Shown here one piece after another: positions 4,787 through 53,251 of a DNA stretch of 64,000 nucleotides. Origin of the DNA: an uncultured Parabacteroides sp. (lineage in GTDB: Bacteria > Bacteroidota > Bacteroidia > Bacteroidales > Tannerellaceae); NCBI GenBank assembly GCA_944325345.1, contig CALUZV010000011.1, positions 24,920 to 88,919 of the forward strand. Reading direction: 5' to 3'. The position numbers and the translations under genes are program-made. Each line of letters begins with the position of its first letter. Within the stretch, counting starts at the first letter, position 1. The notes under the pieces are model-generated. The model did not search any database, was not told the DNA's origin, and was given only the letters and a program-made list of their open reading frames with translations.

Positions 4787-5121
4787 AAAAATTTACCCCG
4801 TATAAAAATATTTTTGGGGCAAATGCAAAAAAAATACCCTGCATACGGCGGTATATGGCGTAAGGAGGAATAAATTTACCCCTCCGCACCGGTGTAAACA
4901 GTGTAAATTCATACACAAATACTCCCATACACCGTTGTAAACGGCGTAAATTCATGCCTCAATACTCCCACTACACCGATGTAAAAGGCGCAAAAACGGC
5001 TTGTTTTACCCCCAAAATATCAATGTGAGGGGTAATATAAGCTGCATTTGCCCCAATTTATAAAATAAAAGGGGTGTATAAAAACAAATTTACCCCATAC
5101 ATGGATATGCATGGGGTAAAT
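4787..5121. repeat. Intergenic repeat block: 43-bp tandem units plus dispersed (A)AATTTACCCC / GGGGTAAA words
   Basis: GTAAA(C/A) recurs at 4894/4937/4981, GTAAATTCAT at 4903/4946 and AATACTCCCA at 4918/4961. TTTACCCC or its complement occurs at least 5 times. Confidence 0.7.
5078..5121 (-). terminator. Intrinsic terminator after the SusC/SusD/phosphoesterase operon
   Basis: Reverse strand: ATTTACCCCAT-GCATATCCATGT-ATGGGGTAAAT followed by TTGTTTTT. Confidence 0.55.
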
Positions 5122-13859: not shown

Positions 13860-14687
13860 TCACTGTACAACCGGGCGATCGTCCGGTTCTTCCTCTTCCG
13901 GCTTCTCGTCCTTTTTGTTCTTGTTGCGCGTCGCACGGCTTTTCAGCGTCGTTTTCTGCGTTTCAATATGCTGGTTCACAGCGCCGATGAAAGCGTCGTA
14001 CGTCGTGCCTTCTTCCAGGTTAGCCACTACATTAATCGTATCGACCATCGCGCGGTAAGCCTCGTCGGCCTCCTGCCGAGCTTCCTTCACGACACCCACC
14101 TCACGCGCGTCTTTCTCCTCCGCTTTTTGCTGGATGGCAAGCAGAAACGCGTCGTTTTCCTTGCGCAGGCGAGCCGTCCACGGGTCGATGCCGAGGAGCG
14201 TCCGTTTCTCGGACGGAATCGCCTCAAGGTCTTGCAAAAAGTTGTGCAGCGTCCCGCTTTCCGCCGTATAGGAGAGGTTCGTCGGGTCGCCGTACTTATC
14301 TACCACTTCTTCACCCTCGACAGCCGCCGCAGCGACATCCGCGTCGGGATGCATCGTCATCGCTTTCAGATAATTGCTGACGCCGCGCCAAGCGTAATCG
14401 CGAGCGTCGTCGGCCTTCGTAACCAGGGCGGAGGAGGCCAGTTTCTCGGAGTCCTTCAGCGCCTCGTCGAATTTTTCGAAAGCCGCCACGAACGCCGCCA
14501 CCTTTGCGTCCACACCTGCCTTGAAAGTACCGGCGGCGACAGACTGGACCGAAGGTTGCCCCGGATTTTCCTCCTCATCTTCTGTCTCGTATCCCATTTT
14601 CGGCAACTCCTTATAGACTAGTTGCTGGAAACCGAAATCCTCTTCGACCCAGAGACGACTCAGACCAAATTCTTTGATTTTACTCAT
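13860..14687 (-). CDS. Uncharacterised protein, paralog A (275 aa), helical with an acidic C-terminal tail ending DDRPVVQ
   Basis: Alignable by eye with 27286..28218: KIK..L.RL.VEEDFGFQQLV, ARDYAWRG.S.Y.KA, DKYG.PT.L, C-terminal DDRPVVQ. I chose the start at MSKIKEF (ATG 14687). Confidence 0.7.
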   Translation of the reverse strand: MSKIKEFGLSRLWVEEDFGFQQLVYKELPKMGYETEDEEENPGQPSVQSVAAGTFKAGVDAKVAAFVAAFEKFDEALKDSEKLASSALVTKADDARDYAWRGVSNYLKAMTMHPDADVAAAAVEGEEVVDKYGDPTNLSYTAESGTLHNFLQDLEAIPSEKRTLLGIDPWTARLRKENDAFLLAIQQKAEEKDAREVGVVKEARQEADEAYRAMVDTINVVANLEEGTTYDAFIGAVNQHIETQKTTLKSRATRNKNKKDEKPEEEEPDDRPVVQ

Positions 14688-14769: not shown

Positions 14770-15027
14770 AAAATATGTACGACAGGACAACTTTTTTTCA
14801 AGCGGAGCCGTCGTAGGCTACGACAGGACTACTTTTCGCCAAGAAGTGCTGTTGTAGCCTACGACAGCCTCGCTTTTTCCCAAGAAGTGCTTTCGTACCC
14901 TACGACAGGGCAAATAATCCTCAAGAACCCTTGTCGTACCCTACGACAGCCTCGCTTTTTCTCAAGTCGCTCTGGTGGTGAAAATTTGTTAACGGATTGA
15001 GCCGAATTTCTCTTGTCGTAGGCTTGG
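14770..15027. repeat. 41-bp phased array of the 8-3-8 dyad CTGTCGTA-NNN-TACGACAG
   Basis: TACGACAG occurs at 14778, 14819, 14860, 14901 and 14942. A left-arm remnant GTCGTAGG at 15015 is in phase (+82). Confidence 0.85.
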
Positions 15028-15031
15028 CAAC

Positions 15032-15063
15032 AAAAAAAGGGCGCATCTTTCGATGCGCCCCCC
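15032..15063 (-). terminator. Intrinsic terminator of fba
   Basis: Reverse strand: GGGCGCATC-GAAA-GATGCGCCC followed by TTTTTTT. Confidence 0.7.
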
Positions 15064-15091
15064 GTCTAATGAACCTTAACTATGTAAAGGA

Positions 15092-22044: not shown

Positions 22045-22088
22045 CTGGAAAATTTGGAATGGTGAATTATGAATGATGAATTATATGA

Positions 22089-22226
22089 GCGTAGCCCTAC
22101 GAAAACGCGCTGCCGTCGGCGGGAAGCTTTCGTACCCCTACGAAACGCTGCTGCCGTCAGCAGGAGGCTTTCGTACCCCTACGAAACGTCGCTGCCGTCG
22201 GCGGGAGGTTTTCGTACCCCTACGCC
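22089..22226. repeat. 41-bp tandem units carrying the hairpin TTTCGTA-CCCC-TACGAAA plus a GC-rich dyad
   Basis: TTTCGTACCCC occurs at 22128/22169/22210, with a degenerate copy at about 22090. The second element is CTGCTG-CCGT-CAGCAG or GCCG-T-CGGC. Confidence 0.85.
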
Positions 22227-26377: not shown

Positions 26378-27182
26378 CGCGGAAATGTTGCAACTGAACG
26401 GCCTCGCCCGCTGTTGCAACATTTCTCATTTTATAACTACGCGCCGGGGCGGTGTCAGCACGGGCGCTTACGCCTCCATGAATCCGGGGGCCTTTGCGGG
26501 CGACAATCCGGCTGCCGTCCGCGAAAACCGCCGCCGTCTGGCGCATGTCATGGGCTTCCGCGTGGAAAGCCTTTTCGTCGCCGAGCAAGTCCACGGCGCC
26601 GTCGTCCGGGTCTTGGACGATACCTTCCTTTCCCTATCTCCTTCGGAAAAATCGAGCTGTTTGCAGGGCGTGGACGGACTGATTACCAACGTCCCCGGCA
26701 TCTGCGTCGCGGTTACGACGGCCGACTGCGTGCCGGTGCTGCTCTATTCGCCGGAGACGGAAACGGTCGCCGCGATACACGCCGGTTGGCGCGGAACGGT
26801 GAAAAACATCGTGGGCGTGGCAGTCGGCGAGATGGTCCGCCGCTTTGGTTGCCGGCCGGAGCGGATGTTGGCGGCGATAGGCCCCTCCATCAGCCGGGAA
26901 GCCTTCGAAGTGGGCGACGAGGTGCTCCGCGCTTTTGCCGCCTCCGGCAATTGGAGCGACGGCGAAATCTCCCGCCTCTCGTGCCGCAATCCGCTGACGC
27001 ATAAGGCGCATATCGACCTTTGGCTCGCCAACAGCCTTCTCTTGGAGAAAGCCGGCCTTATCGCTCGGAACATCGAGGTCGCCGGCATCTGCACCTATTC
27101 CAACCCCGAAGATTTCTTCTCGGCGCGGCGTCTCGGCGTCCGGAGCGGGCGGATTCTCACGGGTATCCTACTCCGCGAATAA
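26337..27182 (+). CDS. pgeF: Peptidoglycan editing factor PgeF (YfiH/DUF152 family)
   Basis: '[13 protein letters not shown]' and 'HAGWRG'. The start is ambiguous: ATG 26337 overlaps the obg tail, and ATG 26385 is the alternative. Confidence 0.8.
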
Positions 27183-27214
27183 TCCCGTAGGACTTATCCC
27201 ATGTTTTTCAAGAC

Positions 27215-27260
27215 AAAAAAAGAGGCCTCCCGATTCAGCGCGTTCGGGAGACCTCTTTCC
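27215..27260. terminator. Bidirectional terminator between convergent genes
   Basis: AAAAAAA-GAGGcCTCCCGA-ttcagcgcgt-TCGGGAGaCCTC-TTT. Confidence 0.6.
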
Positions 27261-27285
27261 ATTGATTACTTTACCTCATGGTGCA

Positions 27286-28218
27286 TCACTGCACGACCGG
27301 ACGGTCGTCGTCTTCCTGTCCGCCAGGTTGTTCGTCCGGATTTTCCGGAGTCTCGTCCGGCGTGTCGGTCGGCTGGTCCGGAGTTTCAGAAGGGTTGTCC
27401 GGTGTGTCGGTCGGCTCTTCCGGCGTCTCGTCGGTATCGTCCGAGTCGTCGTCGCCGCGCGATTCGCGGTTTTTCAACGTCTTCTGTTGTTTTTCAATGT
27501 GCTTGTTTACAACAGCAATGAAATCCTTATAATTCTCGTCGCCTTCGACCTCGACGAGCATGTTAATCATATTGACCAGCGAGCGGTAGGCGTTGTCGGC
27601 CTCCTTTCGCGATTGTTTGATGATACCGACGTTGAGGGCCGCCTCTTCCGCCGCTTTCTGCTTCACCAGCTGGACGAACTTGTCGTTTTCGGTGCGGAGG
27701 CGTTCATTCCATTCATCGATACCCATTTCCGTACGTTCTTCCTCCGGCATAGCCTCCAGTTCCTGCAGCGTGTTGTGAATCACACCGCTTTCTTCCGTCT
27801 GCGTGAGCGACGTCGGGTTCCCGTACTTATCCAAAATATCCTTCGTCTTTGATGCGAGCGCGACGACCTCGCTTCTCGGATGCATCAGCAACGCTTTCAC
27901 ATAACTGCTCAAACCTCTCCAAGCATAGTCGCGTGCTTCGTCAGCTTGCGAAACTGCTGCGCTGGAAGGGGCTTGCGAGTCGCCTTTCAGTGCGGCATCG
28001 AAATTTTCGTGTGCCGTTTTGAAAGTCTCGACCTTCGTCTTCAGGGCCTCGGCAAACGGCGAGTCCAGCGCGCTCTGGACTACCGGGAGGTCCTCGTCGC
28101 CGCCTCCGCTTTCCGTTTCCAGCTTCAGGCGGGGCGTCTCGGCCACCACCAACTGTTGAAAACCGAAATCTTCTTCGACGTGGAGGCGAGTTAATGCTAA
28201 CTGTTTAATTTTAGTCAT
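27286..28218 (-). CDS. Uncharacterised protein, paralog B (310 aa), with a long (T/S)(D/E)TP(D/E)-rich acidic tail ending DDRPVVQ
   Basis: Same conserved blocks as 13860..14687. I chose the start at MTKIKQL (ATG 28218); the track start at 28224 is a TTG. Confidence 0.7.
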   Translation of the reverse strand: MTKIKQLALTRLHVEEDFGFQQLVVAETPRLKLETESGGGDEDLPVVQSALDSPFAEALKTKVETFKTAHENFDAALKGDSQAPSSAAVSQADEARDYAWRGLSSYVKALLMHPRSEVVALASKTKDILDKYGNPTSLTQTEESGVIHNTLQELEAMPEEERTEMGIDEWNERLRTENDKFVQLVKQKAAEEAALNVGIIKQSRKEADNAYRSLVNMINMLVEVEGDENYKDFIAVVNKHIEKQQKTLKNRESRGDDDSDDTDETPEEPTDTPDNPSETPDQPTDTPDETPENPDEQPGGQEDDDRPVVQ

Positions 28219-28299
28219 AGACAATTCCCTTTTTGGTAAAACAACAAATTATCGGTCGTAAAGGTAGGTAATTTCATTGAGAGGAAAATATTTTTCTAT

Positions 28300-28520
28300 T
28301 TAAAAAATCTACGACGGTGCATTTTTTTGGAAAAAAGAGCCGTCGTAGCCTACGACAGCCGATTTTTCTGGAAAAAAGCTCTGTCGTAGGGTACGACAGC
28401 CGATTTTTCTGGAAAAAAGCCCTGTCGTAGGGTACGACGACCGATTTTTCTGAAAAAAAGCCCTGTCGTAGGCTACGACAGCATTTCCTGGAAAAAGGAA
28501 GCACCGTCGTAGATTTTTAT
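28300..28520. repeat. 41-bp phased array of the dyad CTGTCGTA-SSS-TACGACAG alternating with TTTTTC-TG-GAAAAA
   Basis: TACGAC occurs at 28310/28351/28392/28433/28474. The array is bounded by an 18-bp perfect inverted repeat: AAAAATCTACGACGGTGC (28303-28320) and GCACCGTCGTAGATTTTT (28501-28518). Confidence 0.9.
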
Positions 28521-28579
28521 TTCCGATATTTGCACCCGAAATAACAACAAATATTCACATTTATCTAAAAACAAAGACA

Positions 28580-29275
28580 ATGATACCTATCACGATATCA
28601 GAAGAAATCCTGAACGTCTGCCCCTACCTGCACGTCCTCGCGGTGGCAGCCCGGGTGGTGAATACGCCGAGCAACCCGGAACTTTGGGACGAAATCCGTG
28701 CCGAGGAAGAGGAGATACGCGCGACGGTCGCGCTCGAAGAAATCAACAAGTGGCAACCCATCGCGGCGACGCGCGTGGCCTACCGATGCTTCGGCAAAGA
28801 CCCGAACCGCTATCGCCCGTCGGCGGAATCGCTGCTGCGGCGCGTAGTCAAAGGGCTGTCGCTCTACCGCATAGATACGGTGGTCGATTTGGTGAACCTC
28901 GTCTCGTTGCGCAGCGGATTTTCCATCGGGGGCTTCGATGCGGAGAAAATTGTGGGCGCGCTCCGCTTGGGCGTCGGCCGGCGGGGAGAGCCGTACTGCG
29001 GTATCGGTCGCGGCGAGCTGAACATCGAGGGGCTGCCGGTCTATCGCGACGCGGTGGGGGGCGTCGGGACGCCGACGAGCGACGAGGAGCGGACGAAGAT
29101 TTCCGGCACGACGCGCAGCCTGCTCCTGCTCATCAACGGCTACTCGGGGCGCGAGGGACTCTTCGACGCGGGCGACTACGCCGTCCGGCTCCTGCGCCGC
29201 TATGCCGAGGCGGAGGAGGTAGAAATGAGCCTGATTACCTCCGGGGGACAGGCCGAGATGCGTGTCCTGGACTAA
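28580..29275 (+). CDS. B3/B4 tRNA-binding-domain protein (PheT beta-subunit-related)
   Basis: 'RVAYRCFGKDPNRYRPSAESLLRRVVKG...VVDLVNLVSL' is typical of stand-alone B3_4 proteins. Confidence 0.7.
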   Translation: MIPITISEEILNVCPYLHVLAVAARVVNTPSNPELWDEIRAEEEEIRATVALEEINKWQPIAATRVAYRCFGKDPNRYRPSAESLLRRVVKGLSLYRIDTVVDLVNLVSLRSGFSIGGFDAEKIVGALRLGVGRRGEPYCGIGRGELNIEGLPVYRDAVGGVGTPTSDEERTKISGTTRSLLLLINGYSGREGLFDAGDYAVRLLRRYAEAEEVEMSLITSGGQAEMRVLD

Positions 29276-35560: not shown

Positions 35561-36031
35561 ATGGTCATTGAAATACATTATCTCGAAGTGTCGGCGGCCG
35601 GGCTGACTGCTGCCGACGCGCTCCTCCGCGAAGCCGCTTTGCAGGCCGCCGAGCGAGCCTATGCCCCTTATTCGGGTTTCCAAGTCGGCGCGGCGGCTTT
35701 GCTCGAAAACGGCGAGGTCGTTACGGGCTGCAACCAAGAGAATGCCGCTTCCCCCTCGGGACTATGTGCCGAGCGCGTGGCATTGTCCTATGCCGGTGCG
35801 CGTTATCCGGGCGTCCCGGTTTCGGCCTTGGCCATCATCGCGGTATCGGGCGGCGAAATCCGTCCACGCATCGCGCCCTGCGGCGCCTGCTGCCAGGTCT
35901 TGCTGGAGATGGAAAAACGCGGCGGCCGTCCGATGCGCATCCTGTTGTGCGGAAAAGAGACGGTGCGCATCCTGTCGTCCGTCTCGTCCCTCCTCCCGTT
36001 CTCGTTTACCGAGGAAGATTTGGAGATTTGA
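35561..36031 (+). CDS. cdd: Cytidine deaminase
   Basis: Zinc motifs 'CAER' and 'PCGACCQ'; 156 aa. Confidence 0.85.
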   Translation: MVIEIHYLEVSAAGLTAADALLREAALQAAERAYAPYSGFQVGAAALLENGEVVTGCNQENAASPSGLCAERVALSYAGARYPGVPVSALAIIAVSGGEIRPRIAPCGACCQVLLEMEKRGGRPMRILLCGKETVRILSSVSSLLPFSFTEEDLEI

Positions 36032-36034
36032 GGT

Positions 36035-36400
36035 AAACATACCCCTATGTTTGGCACTTTCCCATCCGGAAGTATCAAACATAGGGGTATGTTTTGCCCT
36101 TTCCCGTCCGGAAGTGCCAAACATAGGGGTATGTTTGGGGGAAAAGATGGTGTGGTTAGCCAAACCCAGGGGTGGATTTGGCACTTTTAAACCGGAAAGT
36201 ATCAAACCCAGGGGTGGATTTGGCACTTTTGAACCGGAAAGTATCAAACCCAGGGGTGGTTTTGGTACTTTTGAACTGGAAAGTGCCAAACCCAGGGGTG
36301 GATTTGGCACTTTTGGATTGGAAAGTACCAAACCCAGGGGTGGATTTGGCACTTTTGAATTGGAAAATAACAAACCCACCCCTGGGTTTGGCACTTCGGC
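36035..36400. repeat. 42-bp phased hairpin array with two subfamilies (CAAACATA-GGGG-TATGTTTG x3, CCAAAcCCA-GGGG-TGGaTTTGG x6)
   Basis: CAAACATA occurs at 36076/36118. CAAACCC occurs at 36161/36203/36245/36287/36329/36371. The first and last units carry the loop as CCCC, i.e. flipped. Confidence 0.9.
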
Positions 36401-36448
36401 GTTCCGGCCGGCCATTTCCAGGGGTGGGTTTCCTTCGTCGCCTACGGA

Positions 36449-38197
36449 TTAGATACCCAGCGAAGCCTTGATCGCCTCGATTTTCTCGGCAGCAGCCTTT
36501 TCGGCAGCCGGGATTTCATCGACGCTGTCAATCTTGGAGTGAACCTCGCAGTAGAACTTAATCTTAGGCTCGGTACCCGACGGGCGGATAGAGACTTTCG
36601 TCTTGTCTTCCGTGAAGTACTGGATGACGTTGGACGTAGTCGGCATGTCGAGCGTCAGCGTTTCGTTTTCCACGTAGTCCTTGCCCTTCAGCGTAGCGTA
36701 GTCGTACATGTAAGTTACCTTCGAGCCGGCGATTTCCGTCAACGGGTTTTCGCGGTAGTGCTTCATCATCGCCTCGATTTCCTCGGCGCCGCTCTTGCCC
36801 TTCTTTACGACAGAGATACCTTTTTCTTTCGAGAAACCATATTCGACGTAAATCTTCTGGAGCAATTGGAATACCGTGATGCCCTGGTCTTTTGCCCAAG
36901 CTGCGATTTCAGCCAAGATAGCGCAGGCCGAAACGGCGTCTTTGTCGCGAACGAAGTCTTCGCACAGGAAGCCGTAGCTTTCCTCGCCGCCGCCGATGTA
37001 GCTCTTCTTGCCTTCGTTTTCACGCATGACGTTGGCAATCCATTTGAAGCCCGTGTAAACGTCGTAGATTTCCACACCATTCTTTTCGGCGATGGTGCGG
37101 AGCGTTTCCGTCGTAACAATTGTCTTCACGATGTATTCCTTGCCGTTCAGCTTGCCCAGCTCTTTCCAGCGGGTAATCAGGTAGTAAGTGAAGAGGAGCG
37201 CATTCTGGTTGCCGTTGAGGAGCACCCATTCGCCCTTGTCGTTCTTCACGGCGCAGCCCATGCGGTCGCCGTCGGGGTCAGAAGCCATTACGAGGTCGGC
37301 ATCCACTTCCTTGGCTTTTTCTACAGCCATCGAGAGGGCAGCCGGTTCCTCGGGATTCGGGGAAACTACCGTCGGGAAGTCGCCGCTTACGACGTCTTGC
37401 TCCGGTACGTGGATAATGTTCGTGAAGCCGAAAGCAGCCAATGTGCGCGGAACAATCATGACGCCCGTCCCGTGAATCGGGGTATAGACAATCTTCATGT
37501 CGTGGTGGCGAGCGATAGCCTCCGGAGAGAGGGAAATCTTCGTCAAGTCTGCTACATACTGCTTGTCGATTTCTTCGCCGATGGTTTCAATGAGAGCAGG
37601 GTTGCCTTCGAACTTGATGTCGGCGGCACTGCGTACTTTGTTTACTTCGGCGATTGTGTTCTTGTCGTGCGGGGCAATCATCTGTGCGCCGTCGCTCCAG
37701 TAAGCCTTGTATCCGTTGTATTCCTTCGGGTTGTGCGAAGCCGTCAGGATGATACCGCTTTGGCATCCCAGTTTGCGGATAGCGTAAGACATTTCGGGAG
37801 TCGGGCGGAGGCTTTCGAAGATATAAACTTTGATGCCGTTAGCCGAGAAGATATTGGCCGAGATTTCGGCAAACTTGCGGCTGTTGTTGCGGCAATCGTG
37901 CCCGATGACCACCTTGATTTCGTCGAGGTCGTCAAATTCTTTCTTCAGGTAGTTGGACAAGCCCTGGGTGGCAGCACCCACGGTGTAAATGTTCATGCGG
38001 TTGGAGCCGACGCCCATGATGCCACGCAAGCCGCCCGTACCGAATTCCAGATCCTTGTAGAAGCATTCAATCAGCTCCGTCGGGTCTTCGTTGTTGAGCA
38101 GTGCTTGGACTTGTGCGCGGGTTTCCGCATCGTAACTGTCGGTAAGCCATCCTTGTGCCTTACTTCTTACCATTGCTAAAAGTTCGTTGTTTTCCAT
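36449..38197 (-). CDS. Phosphoglucomutase/phosphomannomutase (alpha-D-phosphohexomutase superfamily)
   Basis: 'TASHNP' phosphoserine loop, 'DPDGDR' metal loop, 'GEESYG' sugar loop; 582 aa. Confidence 0.88.
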   Translation of the reverse strand: MENNELLAMVRSKAQGWLTDSYDAETRAQVQALLNNEDPTELIECFYKDLEFGTGGLRGIMGVGSNRMNIYTVGAATQGLSNYLKKEFDDLDEIKVVIGHDCRNNSRKFAEISANIFSANGIKVYIFESLRPTPEMSYAIRKLGCQSGIILTASHNPKEYNGYKAYWSDGAQMIAPHDKNTIAEVNKVRSAADIKFEGNPALIETIGEEIDKQYVADLTKISLSPEAIARHHDMKIVYTPIHGTGVMIVPRTLAAFGFTNIIHVPEQDVVSGDFPTVVSPNPEEPAALSMAVEKAKEVDADLVMASDPDGDRMGCAVKNDKGEWVLLNGNQNALLFTYYLITRWKELGKLNGKEYIVKTIVTTETLRTIAEKNGVEIYDVYTGFKWIANVMRENEGKKSYIGGGEESYGFLCEDFVRDKDAVSACAILAEIAAWAKDQGITVFQLLQKIYVEYGFSKEKGISVVKKGKSGAEEIEAMMKHYRENPLTEIAGSKVTYMYDYATLKGKDYVENETLTLDMPTTSNVIQYFTEDKTKVSIRPSGTEPKIKFYCEVHSKIDSVDEIPAAEKAAAEKIEAIKASLGI

Positions 38198-40092: not shown

Positions 40093-40258
40093 CCGAGAGA
40101 AACTTCGCTCGGTCCCGGGAAAACTTCGTTTAGTCCGAGGAAAACTTTCCTTCCCCGGGAGGGAAACTTAAAACCAAGCTTTAGTTTTCAAAAACTGAAC
40201 TTTTGTTTTTATAAACTAAGACTTGGTTTTTAAAAACTAAAGTTTGGTTTTAAGAATA
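40093..40258. repeat. Mini-hairpin array with a period of about 21 bp (GAAAACTT words, then AAAAC-N9-GTTTT units)
   Basis: AAACTT occurs at 40100/40121/40142/40164 and GTTTT at 40185/40205/40226/40247. Confidence 0.7.
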
Positions 40259-40361
40259 AGTCCTGACCAATTCAAGTATTCCTCGGACGTATTGAAGTAT
40301 TCTTCCGACCTTTTTCTCTTTTTTACGGGACAATTCACCAAAGAATCCGGATTAAATCCTT

Positions 40362-44506: not shown

Positions 44507-44542
44507 GAGAATTGAATTCGGAAAAAAGAAGAATGGGATGAG

Positions 44543-44733
44543 CCGCCCTCTCGGGCGGAGACGATCCGCCCTATAAGGCGGCAGTGTCCCGCCCAGTAAG
44601 GCGGCGATGAACCGCCCGAGAGGGCGGAGGTGTTCCGCCCGATAAGGCGGTAGTGTCCCGCCCAGTAAGGCGGCGATGAACCGCCCGAGAGGGCGGAGGT
44701 GTTCCGCCCGATAAGGCGGTAGTGTCCCGCCGT
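44543..44733. repeat. Nine CCGCCC-loop-GGCGG hairpins on a 23-bp period (69-bp super-period of three loop variants)
   Basis: CCGCCC occurs at 44543/44566/44589/44612/44635/44658/44681/44704/44727. The loops cycle GAGA(G), (G/T)ATAA, AGTAA. The last hairpin is followed by a T-run. Confidence 0.9.
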
Positions 44734-52843: not shown

Positions 52844-52869
52844 CAGGAACGCCGCCGGTGCTGAAAAAG

Positions 52870-53139
52870 GTTTCCTGCAATTTGCAAGACGCTTGCGACG
52901 GCGTCGCGAGCGTCCTTACATTTGCAGAGTTGCTTGCGACGGCGTCGCAAAGCCCAAAATATTTGCAGAGTTCTTTGCGACGGCGTCGCAAGCGTCCTTT
53001 TTTTTGCAGAGTCGTTTGCGACGGCGTCGCAAGCGTCTTGTTTTTTGCAGAGTTCTTTGCGACGGCGTCGCAAACGTCTTGTTTTTTTGCAGAGCTCTTT
53101 GCGACGGCGTCGCAAGCTACTCTGCAAATTGCAGGAAAC
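52870..53139. repeat. Six 41-bp units carrying the palindrome TTGCGACG-G-CGTCGCAA, bounded by a 17-bp perfect inverted repeat
   Basis: GCGACGGCGTCGC occurs at 52895/52936/52977/53018/53059/53101. The terminal inverted repeat is GTTTCCTGCAATTTGCA (52870-52886) and TGCAAATTGCAGGAAAC (53123-53139). Confidence 0.9.
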
Positions 53140-53251
53140 TATTTTTCGCCTATATTGTACTTTTAACATTAATAAAACATCAAATCCGAAAAATATCCCG
53201 TAAATTCGTGCCAACAAATACAAATAACAACCTTATAAATTATAATTTATC

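Follow-up and report, generated by a model that had tools for sequence, protein, structure and literature searches.

The 64,000 nt stretch of DNA from an uncultured Parabacteroides species analysed here (the window, on whose full length all coordinates are given) carries at positions 28303-28518 a tandem array of five hairpin units on an exact 41 bp phase. We refer to this array together with the minus-strand DUF6261 gene at 27286-28218 as locus B. The array lies ~90 nt upstream of the DUF6261 start codon, arrays with the same period and register precede DUF6261 genes in several paralogs and species, the arms of their units stay complementary while their sequences change, and the array differs between strains. 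Rather than a random repeat, it seems to be a DNA element that is conserved and linked to the gene, and we tentatively favour the reading that it is a phased DNA element upstream of the DUF6261 promoter, read by its symmetry or shape and homogenised by slippage and conversion.

Structure of the locus B array

Tandem Repeats Finder reports the array at 28321-28496 with a period of 41, 4.4 copies, 86% matches and a score of 247. A preliminary description of this DNA had recognised four full dyads between two lone arms, all nested in an 18 bp inverted repeat, and each of these parts is present: TGTCGTA-SSS-TACGACA dyads (S is G or C) have 28349, 28390, 28431 and 28472 as their centres, the lone right arm TACGACGG (28310-28317) and the lone left arm CCGTCGTA (28504-28511) are both on the 41 bp phase, and AAAAATCTACGACGGTGC (28303-28320) and GCACCGTCGTAGATTTTT (28501-28518) form a perfect 18 bp terminal inverted repeat. 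With up to two mismatches allowed this dyad occurs eight times in the window, always within one of two arrays, while shuffled sequence is expected to contain 0.00 copies.

There is a simpler parse than the R-(L.R)x4-L architecture first proposed, namely five whole 38 nt units separated by the 3 nt G/C linkers GCC, GGG, GGG and GGC, each unit being an imperfect hairpin made of an 8 nt right arm, a 22 nt spacer and an 8 nt left arm. Unit 1 (28310-28347) consists of TACGACGG, a 22 nt spacer and CCGTCGTA and is followed by linker GCC (28348-28350); unit 2 (28351-28388) consists of TACGACAG, CCGATTTTTCTGGAAAAAAGCT and CTGTCGTA and is followed by GGG (28389-28391); unit 3 (28392-28429) is followed by GGG (28430-28432); unit 4 (28433-28470), whose right arm is TACGACGA, is followed by GGC (28471-28473); and unit 5 (28474-28511) has another spacer type, CATTTCCTGGAAAAAGGAAGCA, which it has in common with allele 2 (L004, below). 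A-run and T-run flanks complete the terminal inverted repeat of the whole element (28303-28518), and neither the element nor its units are assigned to a strand.

The array as a whole is self-complementary (arms of 107 nt that are 71% complementary, with 2 nt between them) and folds far more stably than shuffled sequences (z about -12 on either strand, as DNA or as RNA). Because each tandem unit is nearly a palindrome, a dyad centre must fall at each half period and the two strands must be nearly identical; the alternating palindromes and the self-complementarity that were listed earlier as separate findings are thus real but automatic, and the "second palindrome" in the spacers is not an independent feature. 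Inspection by eye for sigma-54 motifs and for the Bacteroidetes -7 motif within the units gave no consistent match.

Linkage to the DUF6261 gene

The genes that flank the array are divergent, as had been reported: 27286-28218 on the minus strand encodes a 310 amino acid, acidic, all-helical DUF6261 protein and 28580-29275 on the plus strand encodes a B3_4-domain protein whose nearest named relative is that of Parabacteroides bouchesdurhonensis (64% identity). To which of these does the array belong? Species with a 68% identical B3_4 protein retain the order Obg, Cu-oxidase_4, B3_4, DUF2582, ZapA, RNase Y; in them 120 bp separate Cu-oxidase_4 from B3_4 (~40 bp in a further contig, L095), and there is neither a DUF6261 gene nor an array. 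Since the two genes are adjacent in these relatives, ~27183-28518 is a lineage-specific insert whose right edge is the last array arm. The motif ATATTTGC in the B3_4 upstream region (28519-28579, plus strand) is retained in the relatives that have no array and no DUF6261, and so the right end of the array would abut the putative B3_4 promoter. The preliminary description had placed the array between the two divergent genes; it is not an element common to both, since the relatives keep B3_4 and a similar ATATTTGC motif without array or DUF6261. As judged by gene order, the locus B array came in together with the DUF6261 gene, travels with it, and belongs to it and not to both of its neighbours.

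The ~90 nt between the array and the DUF6261 start codon (28219-28302, minus strand) probably hold the core promoter and 5' untranslated region of the gene. This block can be aligned among the alleles and, weakly, with DUF6261 paralog A (below), and it contains TAATTTG (CAAATTA on the plus strand, 28245-28251), which comes close to the Bacteroidetes -7 motif. The other end of the insert has a hairpin with A-run and T-run flanks (27215-27259, no strand assigned) that lies 3' of both DUF6261 and the Cu-oxidase_4 gene and may be the terminator-like left part of the insert.

The second array with the same arms, array A, occupies 14778-15020 (no strand assigned) and contains four full dyads together with a lone right arm, a degenerate position at 14981 and, in phase, a left arm at its terminus (15013-15020). 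It starts 90 nt 5' of DUF6261 paralog A (13860-14687, minus strand; 275 amino acids, 50% identical to the locus B protein), so that both CTGTCGTA arrays of the window sit ~90 nt 5' of a DUF6261 paralog. Arrays A and B have their arms in common and differ in their spacers.

The window has a GC content of ~52% and is a Bacteroidales housekeeping stretch (Obg, RNase Y, ZapA, lpxD/C/A, pyrF, RF-1). No transposase or recombinase was found among the proteins of its 64 kb. The source species is otherwise represented only in gut metagenome assemblies and by one NCBI contig.

Arrays at other DUF6261 genes keep the period and the register

A third paralog, P0220 (locus C; 44% identical; L120-L125), lies on the same large contig as the ortholog of locus A and has an upstream 41 bp array whose arms, CTTTCCTG/CAGGAAAG, are unrelated to CTGTCGTA. 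A further DUF6261 locus, P0200 (L128-L130), also has an upstream 41 bp array, with arms GGGGACAG/CTATTCCC. DUF6261 homologs on two IMG/VR contigs have arrays as well (L126 uses GTCGACAG and L127 uses GGGGACAG), a distant homolog (L132, 33% identity) has one built on TTGATT-RY-AATCAA, and the arrays at the DUF6261 loci of L109, L117 and L131 are degenerate. The common plan of these arrays is 8 + 22 + 8 + 3 = 41.

Autocorrelation of the upstream regions gives a lag of 41 as the top lag in 12 of 12 DUF6261 upstream regions tested, and the value exceeds the shuffle maximum of 0.46 in 11 of them. The lag-41 values in the source species group are 0.71 for A, 0.89 for B, 0.83 for allele 3 of B, 0.75 for C and 0.93 for P0200, and in other species they are 0.70 (L126), 0.72 (L127), 0.53 (L109), 0.47 (L117), 0.53 (L131) and 0.54 (L132); at the DUF6261 gene of L111 the value of 0.35 is not significant. 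The register relative to the gene is fixed. From first arm to ATG the distance is 90-91 nt at loci A and B, and at loci B, C and P0200 the motif AAAAAGCAC precedes the ATG by 107, 107 and 108 nt (+41n), respectively. The promoter-proximal role that the preliminary description had suggested is plausible, and the fixed register relative to the DUF6261 start strengthens it.

Near matches to the Bacteroidetes -7 motif lie between array and gene in other species too (TAAATTTG in L126, TACATTTG in L109 and L117), so that a promoter belonging to DUF6261 alone would seem to be situated downstream of the array. In L109, L117 and L131 a gene for an HU-HIG (PF18291) DNA-binding protein is directly upstream of the degenerate array and DUF6261. 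We rejected HU-HIG as a constant neighbour, since it is absent at loci A and B and the upstream proteins of L120, L111 and L126 are unrelated. The L117 gene adjoins conjugative-transposon genes (TraO, DUF4138) and that of L109 adjoins an EcoRII-type restriction-modification system with Vsr. A tblastn search of plasmids with DUF6261 found nothing. We found no published account of the link to the gene, of the fixed register or of the conservation of the 41 bp period across species, and literature searches on 41 bp tandem repeats in Bacteroides and on type III toxin-antitoxin systems in Bacteroidetes found nothing relevant.

Arms change but remain complementary

The arms differ between arrays yet stay complementary, and the spacers are conserved in part. 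Across arrays, 76.6% of arm cells pair, compared with 63.9 ± 1.4% in shuffled controls and 31-52% when the partners are slid. The arm covariation score is 0.424 against 0.195, a value reached by none of 500 shuffles, and this result is carried by roughly 6-8 arm changes that are independent of one another. In a few cases (CAGGATTT..GAATCCTG at locus C and, in L127, AGGGAAAG..CTTTCCCC in its last unit) the changes favour pairing inside the unit over pairing across the junction. Spacers of arrays A and C are identical at 16 of 22 positions (hand count) in the same orientation relative to the gene.

Mismatches in the arms have no strand bias (32 G-T and 38 A-C), and a constraint on duplex DNA, or on either strand, therefore fits better than one on a single RNA strand. 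The asymmetric spacer motif is moreover inverted in L109 and L117, and the two observations together argue against a single functional RNA strand.

Variation within the species

Sixteen contigs with a readable locus B fall into three alleles, whose flanks are 97-100% identical and whose array regions (~28186-28500) are only 53-73% identical, which makes the array the most variable stretch of the locus. Allele 1 is the form in the window; allele 2 (L004) keeps the arms and has spacers CACTTCCTGAAAAAAGGAAG; allele 3 (L112-L116) keeps the spacers and has arms GTCAACAG/CTGGAAAC, and its DUF6261 protein is 99% identical to that of the window. The outermost arms of allele 3, GTCAACAG...CTGTTGAC, are perfect partners that represent a compensating change relative to allele 1, and the array follows the pattern X X X X rc(X), where rc is the reverse complement. 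In allele 3 and at P0200 the inner arms are imperfect and the outermost arms are perfect complements, which fits the earlier suggestion that units grew inside one outer hairpin.

The number of units at locus B is five in 15 of the 16 contigs and six in L009, which has an extra 41 bp; P0200 has four or five. Linker triplets vary among GCC, GGC, GGG and CCC, and in one dyad of locus A two bases differ at once between strains (GGC versus CCC). Is the array, then, freely gained and lost, as the preliminary description considered it might be? Its sequence and copy number do vary, but no strain has DUF6261 at locus B without an array: the array is present in all 16 readable contigs and is absent only where DUF6261 is absent too. 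In scaffold L005 a run of N replaces the array and the 5' part of DUF6261 (equivalent to window ~28100-28555), and such arrays thus break short-read assemblies. Inversion of the whole array was not seen in the 16 contigs, and the unit 5 spacer type is always on the right, although assemblies may hide minority orientations. An invertible promoter was considered and rejected, since there is one orientation in 16 contigs despite the 18 bp inverted repeat and the window has no recombinase.

At locus A some strains (L105-L108, 9042-9666; window ~15021) have a Gp49 (HigB-like) plus HTH_3 (HigA-like) cassette exactly at the distal arm of the array, and ahead of the cassette lies an arm-like hairpin that belongs to it, GACGGA..TCCGTC; there is no cassette in the window or in L100-L102. 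L099 and L103 have the hybrid junction GCGACGAC|AAGAG there, which as a sequence is consistent with deletion between arm copies.

The DUF6261 protein

DUF6261 proteins are 260-320 amino acids long and acidic (pI 4.4-4.7), and their sole Pfam match is PF19775. An AlphaFold2 model (pLDDT 83) is a bundle of long helices. Comparisons with NCBIfam, PHROGs, PADLOC, PDB sequences and, by Foldseek, PDB structures gave only noise, and no relevant literature on DUF6261 was found. Within the locus B coding sequence, 21/42 bp tandem repeats (27332-27443) encode an acidic C-terminal tail rich in Pro, Thr, Asp and Glu (..TDTPD..), and the paralogs share the terminal motif DDRPVVQ. DUF6261 was considered as an array-binding protein and rejected on account of its acidity and of allele 3, which has changed arms and an unchanged protein.

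What the array may do

The exact period and register survive between paralogs and species, wherever the gene is present the array is too, and its size is stable across very different alleles; these facts argue that the array is retained as a component of the region upstream of DUF6261. Given that the arms can change freely and that their mismatches show no strand asymmetry, symmetry and phasing rather than a fixed sequence appear to be what is kept. The array at 28303-28518 would then be the local copy, in this gut bacterium, of a conserved gene-linked element of gut Bacteroidales situated directly upstream of the DUF6261 core promoter, where it might act at the level of DNA as an upstream platform for that promoter. 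Its working features would be its phasing (41 bp corresponds to some four turns of the helix, and dyads recur every two turns) and its local dyad symmetry, through which it could readily form hairpins or cruciforms or be bound by a dimer; a fixed arm sequence is seemingly not needed. Replication slippage and gene conversion would keep the units alike within an array, and could give rise to the 41 bp differences between alleles, the flips of linker triplets and the replacement of whole blocks. We infer from these patterns that the array affects transcription, that it does so as DNA and not as RNA, and that some factor reads it.

Several points weigh against this picture. No array-binding factor is known, and DUF6261 itself, being acidic and modelled as all-helical with no match to a DNA-binding fold, is unlikely to be the reader. 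A classical sequence-specific operator is excluded, because the arms differ between alleles that share one protein. The allele 3 arms are only 5/8 complementary, and arms of eight bases are short for stable cruciforms. Finally, arrays of a similar plan at 22084-22224, 36034-36400 and 52868-53140 (below) adjoin unrelated genes or lie between convergent genes; DUF6261 is thus not the only gene with arrays of this class, which might stem from some general process that forms repeats.

In the main rival explanation the array is a hitch-hiking hairpin minisatellite that arose, selfishly or neutrally, by slippage at a palindrome and is comparable to the bacterial interspersed mosaic elements (BIMEs), repetitive extragenic palindromes (REPs) and MITEPgRS (below), copied or moved with DUF6261 and having no role of its own. 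We regard this as possible but doubtful. It accounts for the steps of 41 bp in copy number (six units in L009, 2, 3 or 6 spacers in the array at 22084, 4 or 5 units at P0200), for the concentration of variation and of linker flips in the array, and for the gain or loss of a toxin-antitoxin cassette exactly at the terminal arm of array A, with a hybrid junction in one allele. The window as a whole holds six or seven arrays with periods of 41-43 bp as well as 23 and 21 bp ones, in all gene orientations, and Porphyromonas gingivalis has 41, 23 and 22 nt tandem repeats, the 41 nt one inside MITEPgRS (PMC4596501, PMC2575886). Neutral repeats should decay, however, and here an exact period and a register held to within 1 nt of the ATG persist between paralogs that are 44-50% identical and across species; the locus B contigs never lack the array where they have the gene, and the window holds no terminal repeat of insertion sequence (IS) type, no target duplication and no transposase. 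If the array does prove neutral, it is still a clean case of concerted evolution of a hairpin minisatellite.

Could the repeats instead work as RNA? Tandem hairpins that are transcribed, in the manner of ToxI or of a small-RNA array, and act on or with the DUF6261 protein or its mRNA would explain the layout, which resembles that of type III systems (directly 5' of a protein-coding gene, a short run of tandem units whose length is kept while their sequence diverges fast), the compensating stem changes around a partly conserved spacer or loop (including the unit-level compensations at locus C and in L127, above), the T-run after the last hairpin, and the occurrence of DUF6261 near restriction-modification and conjugative-transposon genes and on contigs called viral. 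The balance of the G-T and A-C mismatches, the reversed spacer motif in L109 and L117, and the -7-like motifs that put a putative promoter between array and gene speak against it; so does the protein, which is acidic and helical, is unlike the ToxN RNase and has no meaningful PADLOC match, and the array has no Rfam match. We consider this version unlikely. Another reading, rather speculative, is that DUF6261 and the 41 nt array form a previously unrecognised two-part mobile module of gut Bacteroidales, with the array serving as the gene's functional partner, either as a processed repeat RNA or as a hairpin-based recombination or attachment site for cassettes such as the HigBA-like pair. If this were true, the 41 nt unit length would be a molecular ruler in some enzyme or complex.

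The likeness of each unit to a bidirectional terminator, which the preliminary description had remarked on, is genuine: a scan of both strands of 27100-28700 finds nine hairpin-plus-T-run sites where 2.5 are expected, all of them inside the array. Its position is not that of a terminator, as it lies between the start codons at 28218 and 28580 and not at the 3' end of a transcription unit. Stacked units of this type might nevertheless stop stray transcription from either side and shield the DUF6261 promoter, given that in all alleles and paralogs the last arm on the promoter side is followed by a T-run and that array A separates the DUF6261 promoter from an upstream gene or from the toxin-antitoxin cassette. 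We think such a terminator or insulator role improbable, in that no gene reads into the locus B array (both neighbours point away), a separate canonical terminator already precedes array A (~15040-15065), the units of A, C and P0200 have A-runs rather than T-runs on the sense strand, and one hairpin would suffice, leaving the exact 41 bp period without an explanation.

Least credible is the idea that the units are operators for a dimeric regulator with sequence-specific recognition of CTGTCGTA-N3-TACGACAG. An 8-3-8 palindrome is typical of dimer sites, and identical arms do occur at two loci with differing spacers. Judged from the sequences of the alleles, this reading is largely refuted by allele 3, whose arms are GTCAACAG/CTGGAAAC in strains with flanks 97-100% identical and a DUF6261 protein 99% identical; the proposal that the CTGTCGTA arms are a conserved recognition sequence falls with it. 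Other DUF6261 arrays have unrelated arms. An exact-pattern scan for the dyad TGTCGTASSSTACGACAG finds 26 stretches in 185,579 GTDB species genomes and 57 in JGI metagenomes, all of them isolated and none in arrays; those inspected lie in non-repetitive, coding-like sequence, and the array family therefore appears to be lineage-restricted. A scan of viral contigs for the spacer consensus found nothing, and that same consensus (3 mismatches) is also absent from the window itself.

The tandem 41 nt repeats of P. gingivalis have been noted for about twenty years without explanation. Arrays with a period of exactly 41 bp that are tied to the uncharacterised DUF6261 in several paralogs and species of human-gut Bacteroidales constitute a testable cis-element, and the array gives a handle on DUF6261. 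The strains provide a natural allelic series for experiments, with 4, 5 or 6 units and three arm types. The arrays are also hypervariable, assembly-breaking sites in common gut bacteria.

Other periodic stretches

A 41 bp array at 22084-22224, ~45 nt 5' of a SIS-domain gene, is built on the dyad TTTCGTA-CCCC-TACGAAA and has a spacer hairpin CTGC..GCAG. It has three spacers in the window, six in L106 and two in L108, and its spacer stem shows compensating changes between copies (CGCTG/CGGCG versus TGCTG/CAGCA). Two adjoining 42 bp arrays at 36034-36400 use CCAAACATA-GGGG-TATGTTTGG and then CCAAACCCA-GGGG-TGGATTTGG, with one loop flipped (CCCC versus GGGG); they apparently lie between convergent genes for an AraC-type regulator and phosphoglucomutase. 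The first dyad type contains TATGTTTG, a perfect Bacteroidetes -7 motif TAnnTTTG on both strands. An open reading frame that runs through these arrays (35661-36452) has no Pfam match and is probably spurious.

Between the DUF4130 and aldehyde dehydrogenase genes, a 41 bp array at 52868-53140 has six copies of TTGCGAC-GGC-GTCGCAA with a T-rich spacer, nested in a 17 bp perfect inverted repeat GTTTCCTGCAATTTGCA; its last piece is an inverted unit end, which gives an X..X rc(X) plan. A 23 bp minisatellite of short hairpins, CCGCCC-N5-GGGCGG (also detected with period 69, 95% matches), lies at 44541-44731 between pyrF and lpxD and has the same period as the BrickBuilt repeats of P. gingivalis. Three short runs of 21 bp repeats occur at 40100-40310 between divergent M23 peptidase and glucosaminidase genes, and a 43 bp repeat (2.5 copies) at 4887-4994, between two minus-strand genes, is very variable between strains (L105-L108). 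Outside the window, a chance match in an Alloprevotella metagenome-assembled genome (L029, 6138-6351) is a 42 bp array of 5.1 copies (93% matches) with arms CGTCGC/GCGACG and a spacer with its own small stem, which suggests that such arrays are widespread in Bacteroidales.

Comparison with known repeat elements

The array is not a CRISPR array, as both the "repeat" and the "spacer" parts recur in every unit and the Pfam search found no cas genes. In a search of Rfam 15 at gathering and E-value thresholds only a tRNA passes, and the array is sub-threshold to miRNA-hairpin models (34 versus 117 bits).

REPs and BIMEs of Proteobacteria are clustered extragenic imperfect palindromes of ~35-40 nt, with several sequence families per genome. 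The array is like them in being made of intergenic 38 nt imperfect palindromes, five in tandem, and in having GTAG/CTAC next to the stem (GTCGTAG-G-CTACGAC here). REPs are present in hundreds of dispersed copies and have REP-associated tyrosine transposases (RAYTs), and neighbouring elements in a BIME alternate in orientation with variable linkers. The strict 41 bp period and the gene link of the array are not REP features, and Y1_Tnp (the RAYT domain) was not matched among the window proteins searched.

ToxI arrays of type III toxin-antitoxin systems likewise have a short tandem unit 5' of a protein gene, diverge fast and are found in mobile or defence-like contexts. The DUF6261 arrays share this layout, ending ~90 nt 5' of the gene at loci A and B and in the same register at C and P0200. 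They differ in that the partner is not a ToxN/AbiQ/CptN-type RNase, the units are palindromic on both strands, and promoter-like sequence lies between array and gene. The plasmid centromere sopC has 12 tandem 43 bp units, each with a short inverted repeat, and is bound by SopB. The likeness in tandem units of ~41-43 bp with a short dyad points to phased dimer binding; the array is unlike sopC in being chromosomal, in having several unrelated arrays within the same 64 kb, in the lack of partition genes and in the acidic nature of the neighbouring protein.

By analogy of period and layout, the closest published counterpart of the locus B array appears to be the 41 nt repeat of MITEPgRS (MITE464), a MITE (miniature inverted-repeat transposable element) found in P. 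gingivalis in which up to 14 tandem copies of the 41 nt "Repeat C" lie inside ISPg1-type terminal repeats (Naito 2008, PMC2575886; Klein 2015, PMC4596501). Both are Bacteroidales, intergenic, 41 nt direct repeats of variable copy number bounded by inverted repeats. MITEPgRS differs in its 12 bp terminal repeats identical to those of ISPg1 (IS5 family), its Repeat A and B blocks and its ~20 dispersed copies, whereas the terminal repeat of the locus B array is made of the outer unit arms and an A/T run, no IS is nearby, and the array keeps a fixed distance to genes of a single family. The ends of the other window arrays are unrelated to this terminal repeat. Membership in the MITE class is accordingly not supported, there being no IS-type terminal repeat in the window, no flanking target duplication and no presence/absence polymorphism (16 of 16 contigs).

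A second analogue would be BrickBuilt, a 23 nt intergenic minisatellite-MITE of P. gingivalis with predicted long stem-loops, strain-variable copy number and reported promoter activity (PMC4596501). Like the array it is a species-restricted intergenic minisatellite with stem-loops whose copy number varies between strains, and unlike the array it has no reported link to one gene family. The two sets of periods run parallel, being 41, 23 and 22 nt in P. gingivalis and 41/42, 23 and 21 in the window.

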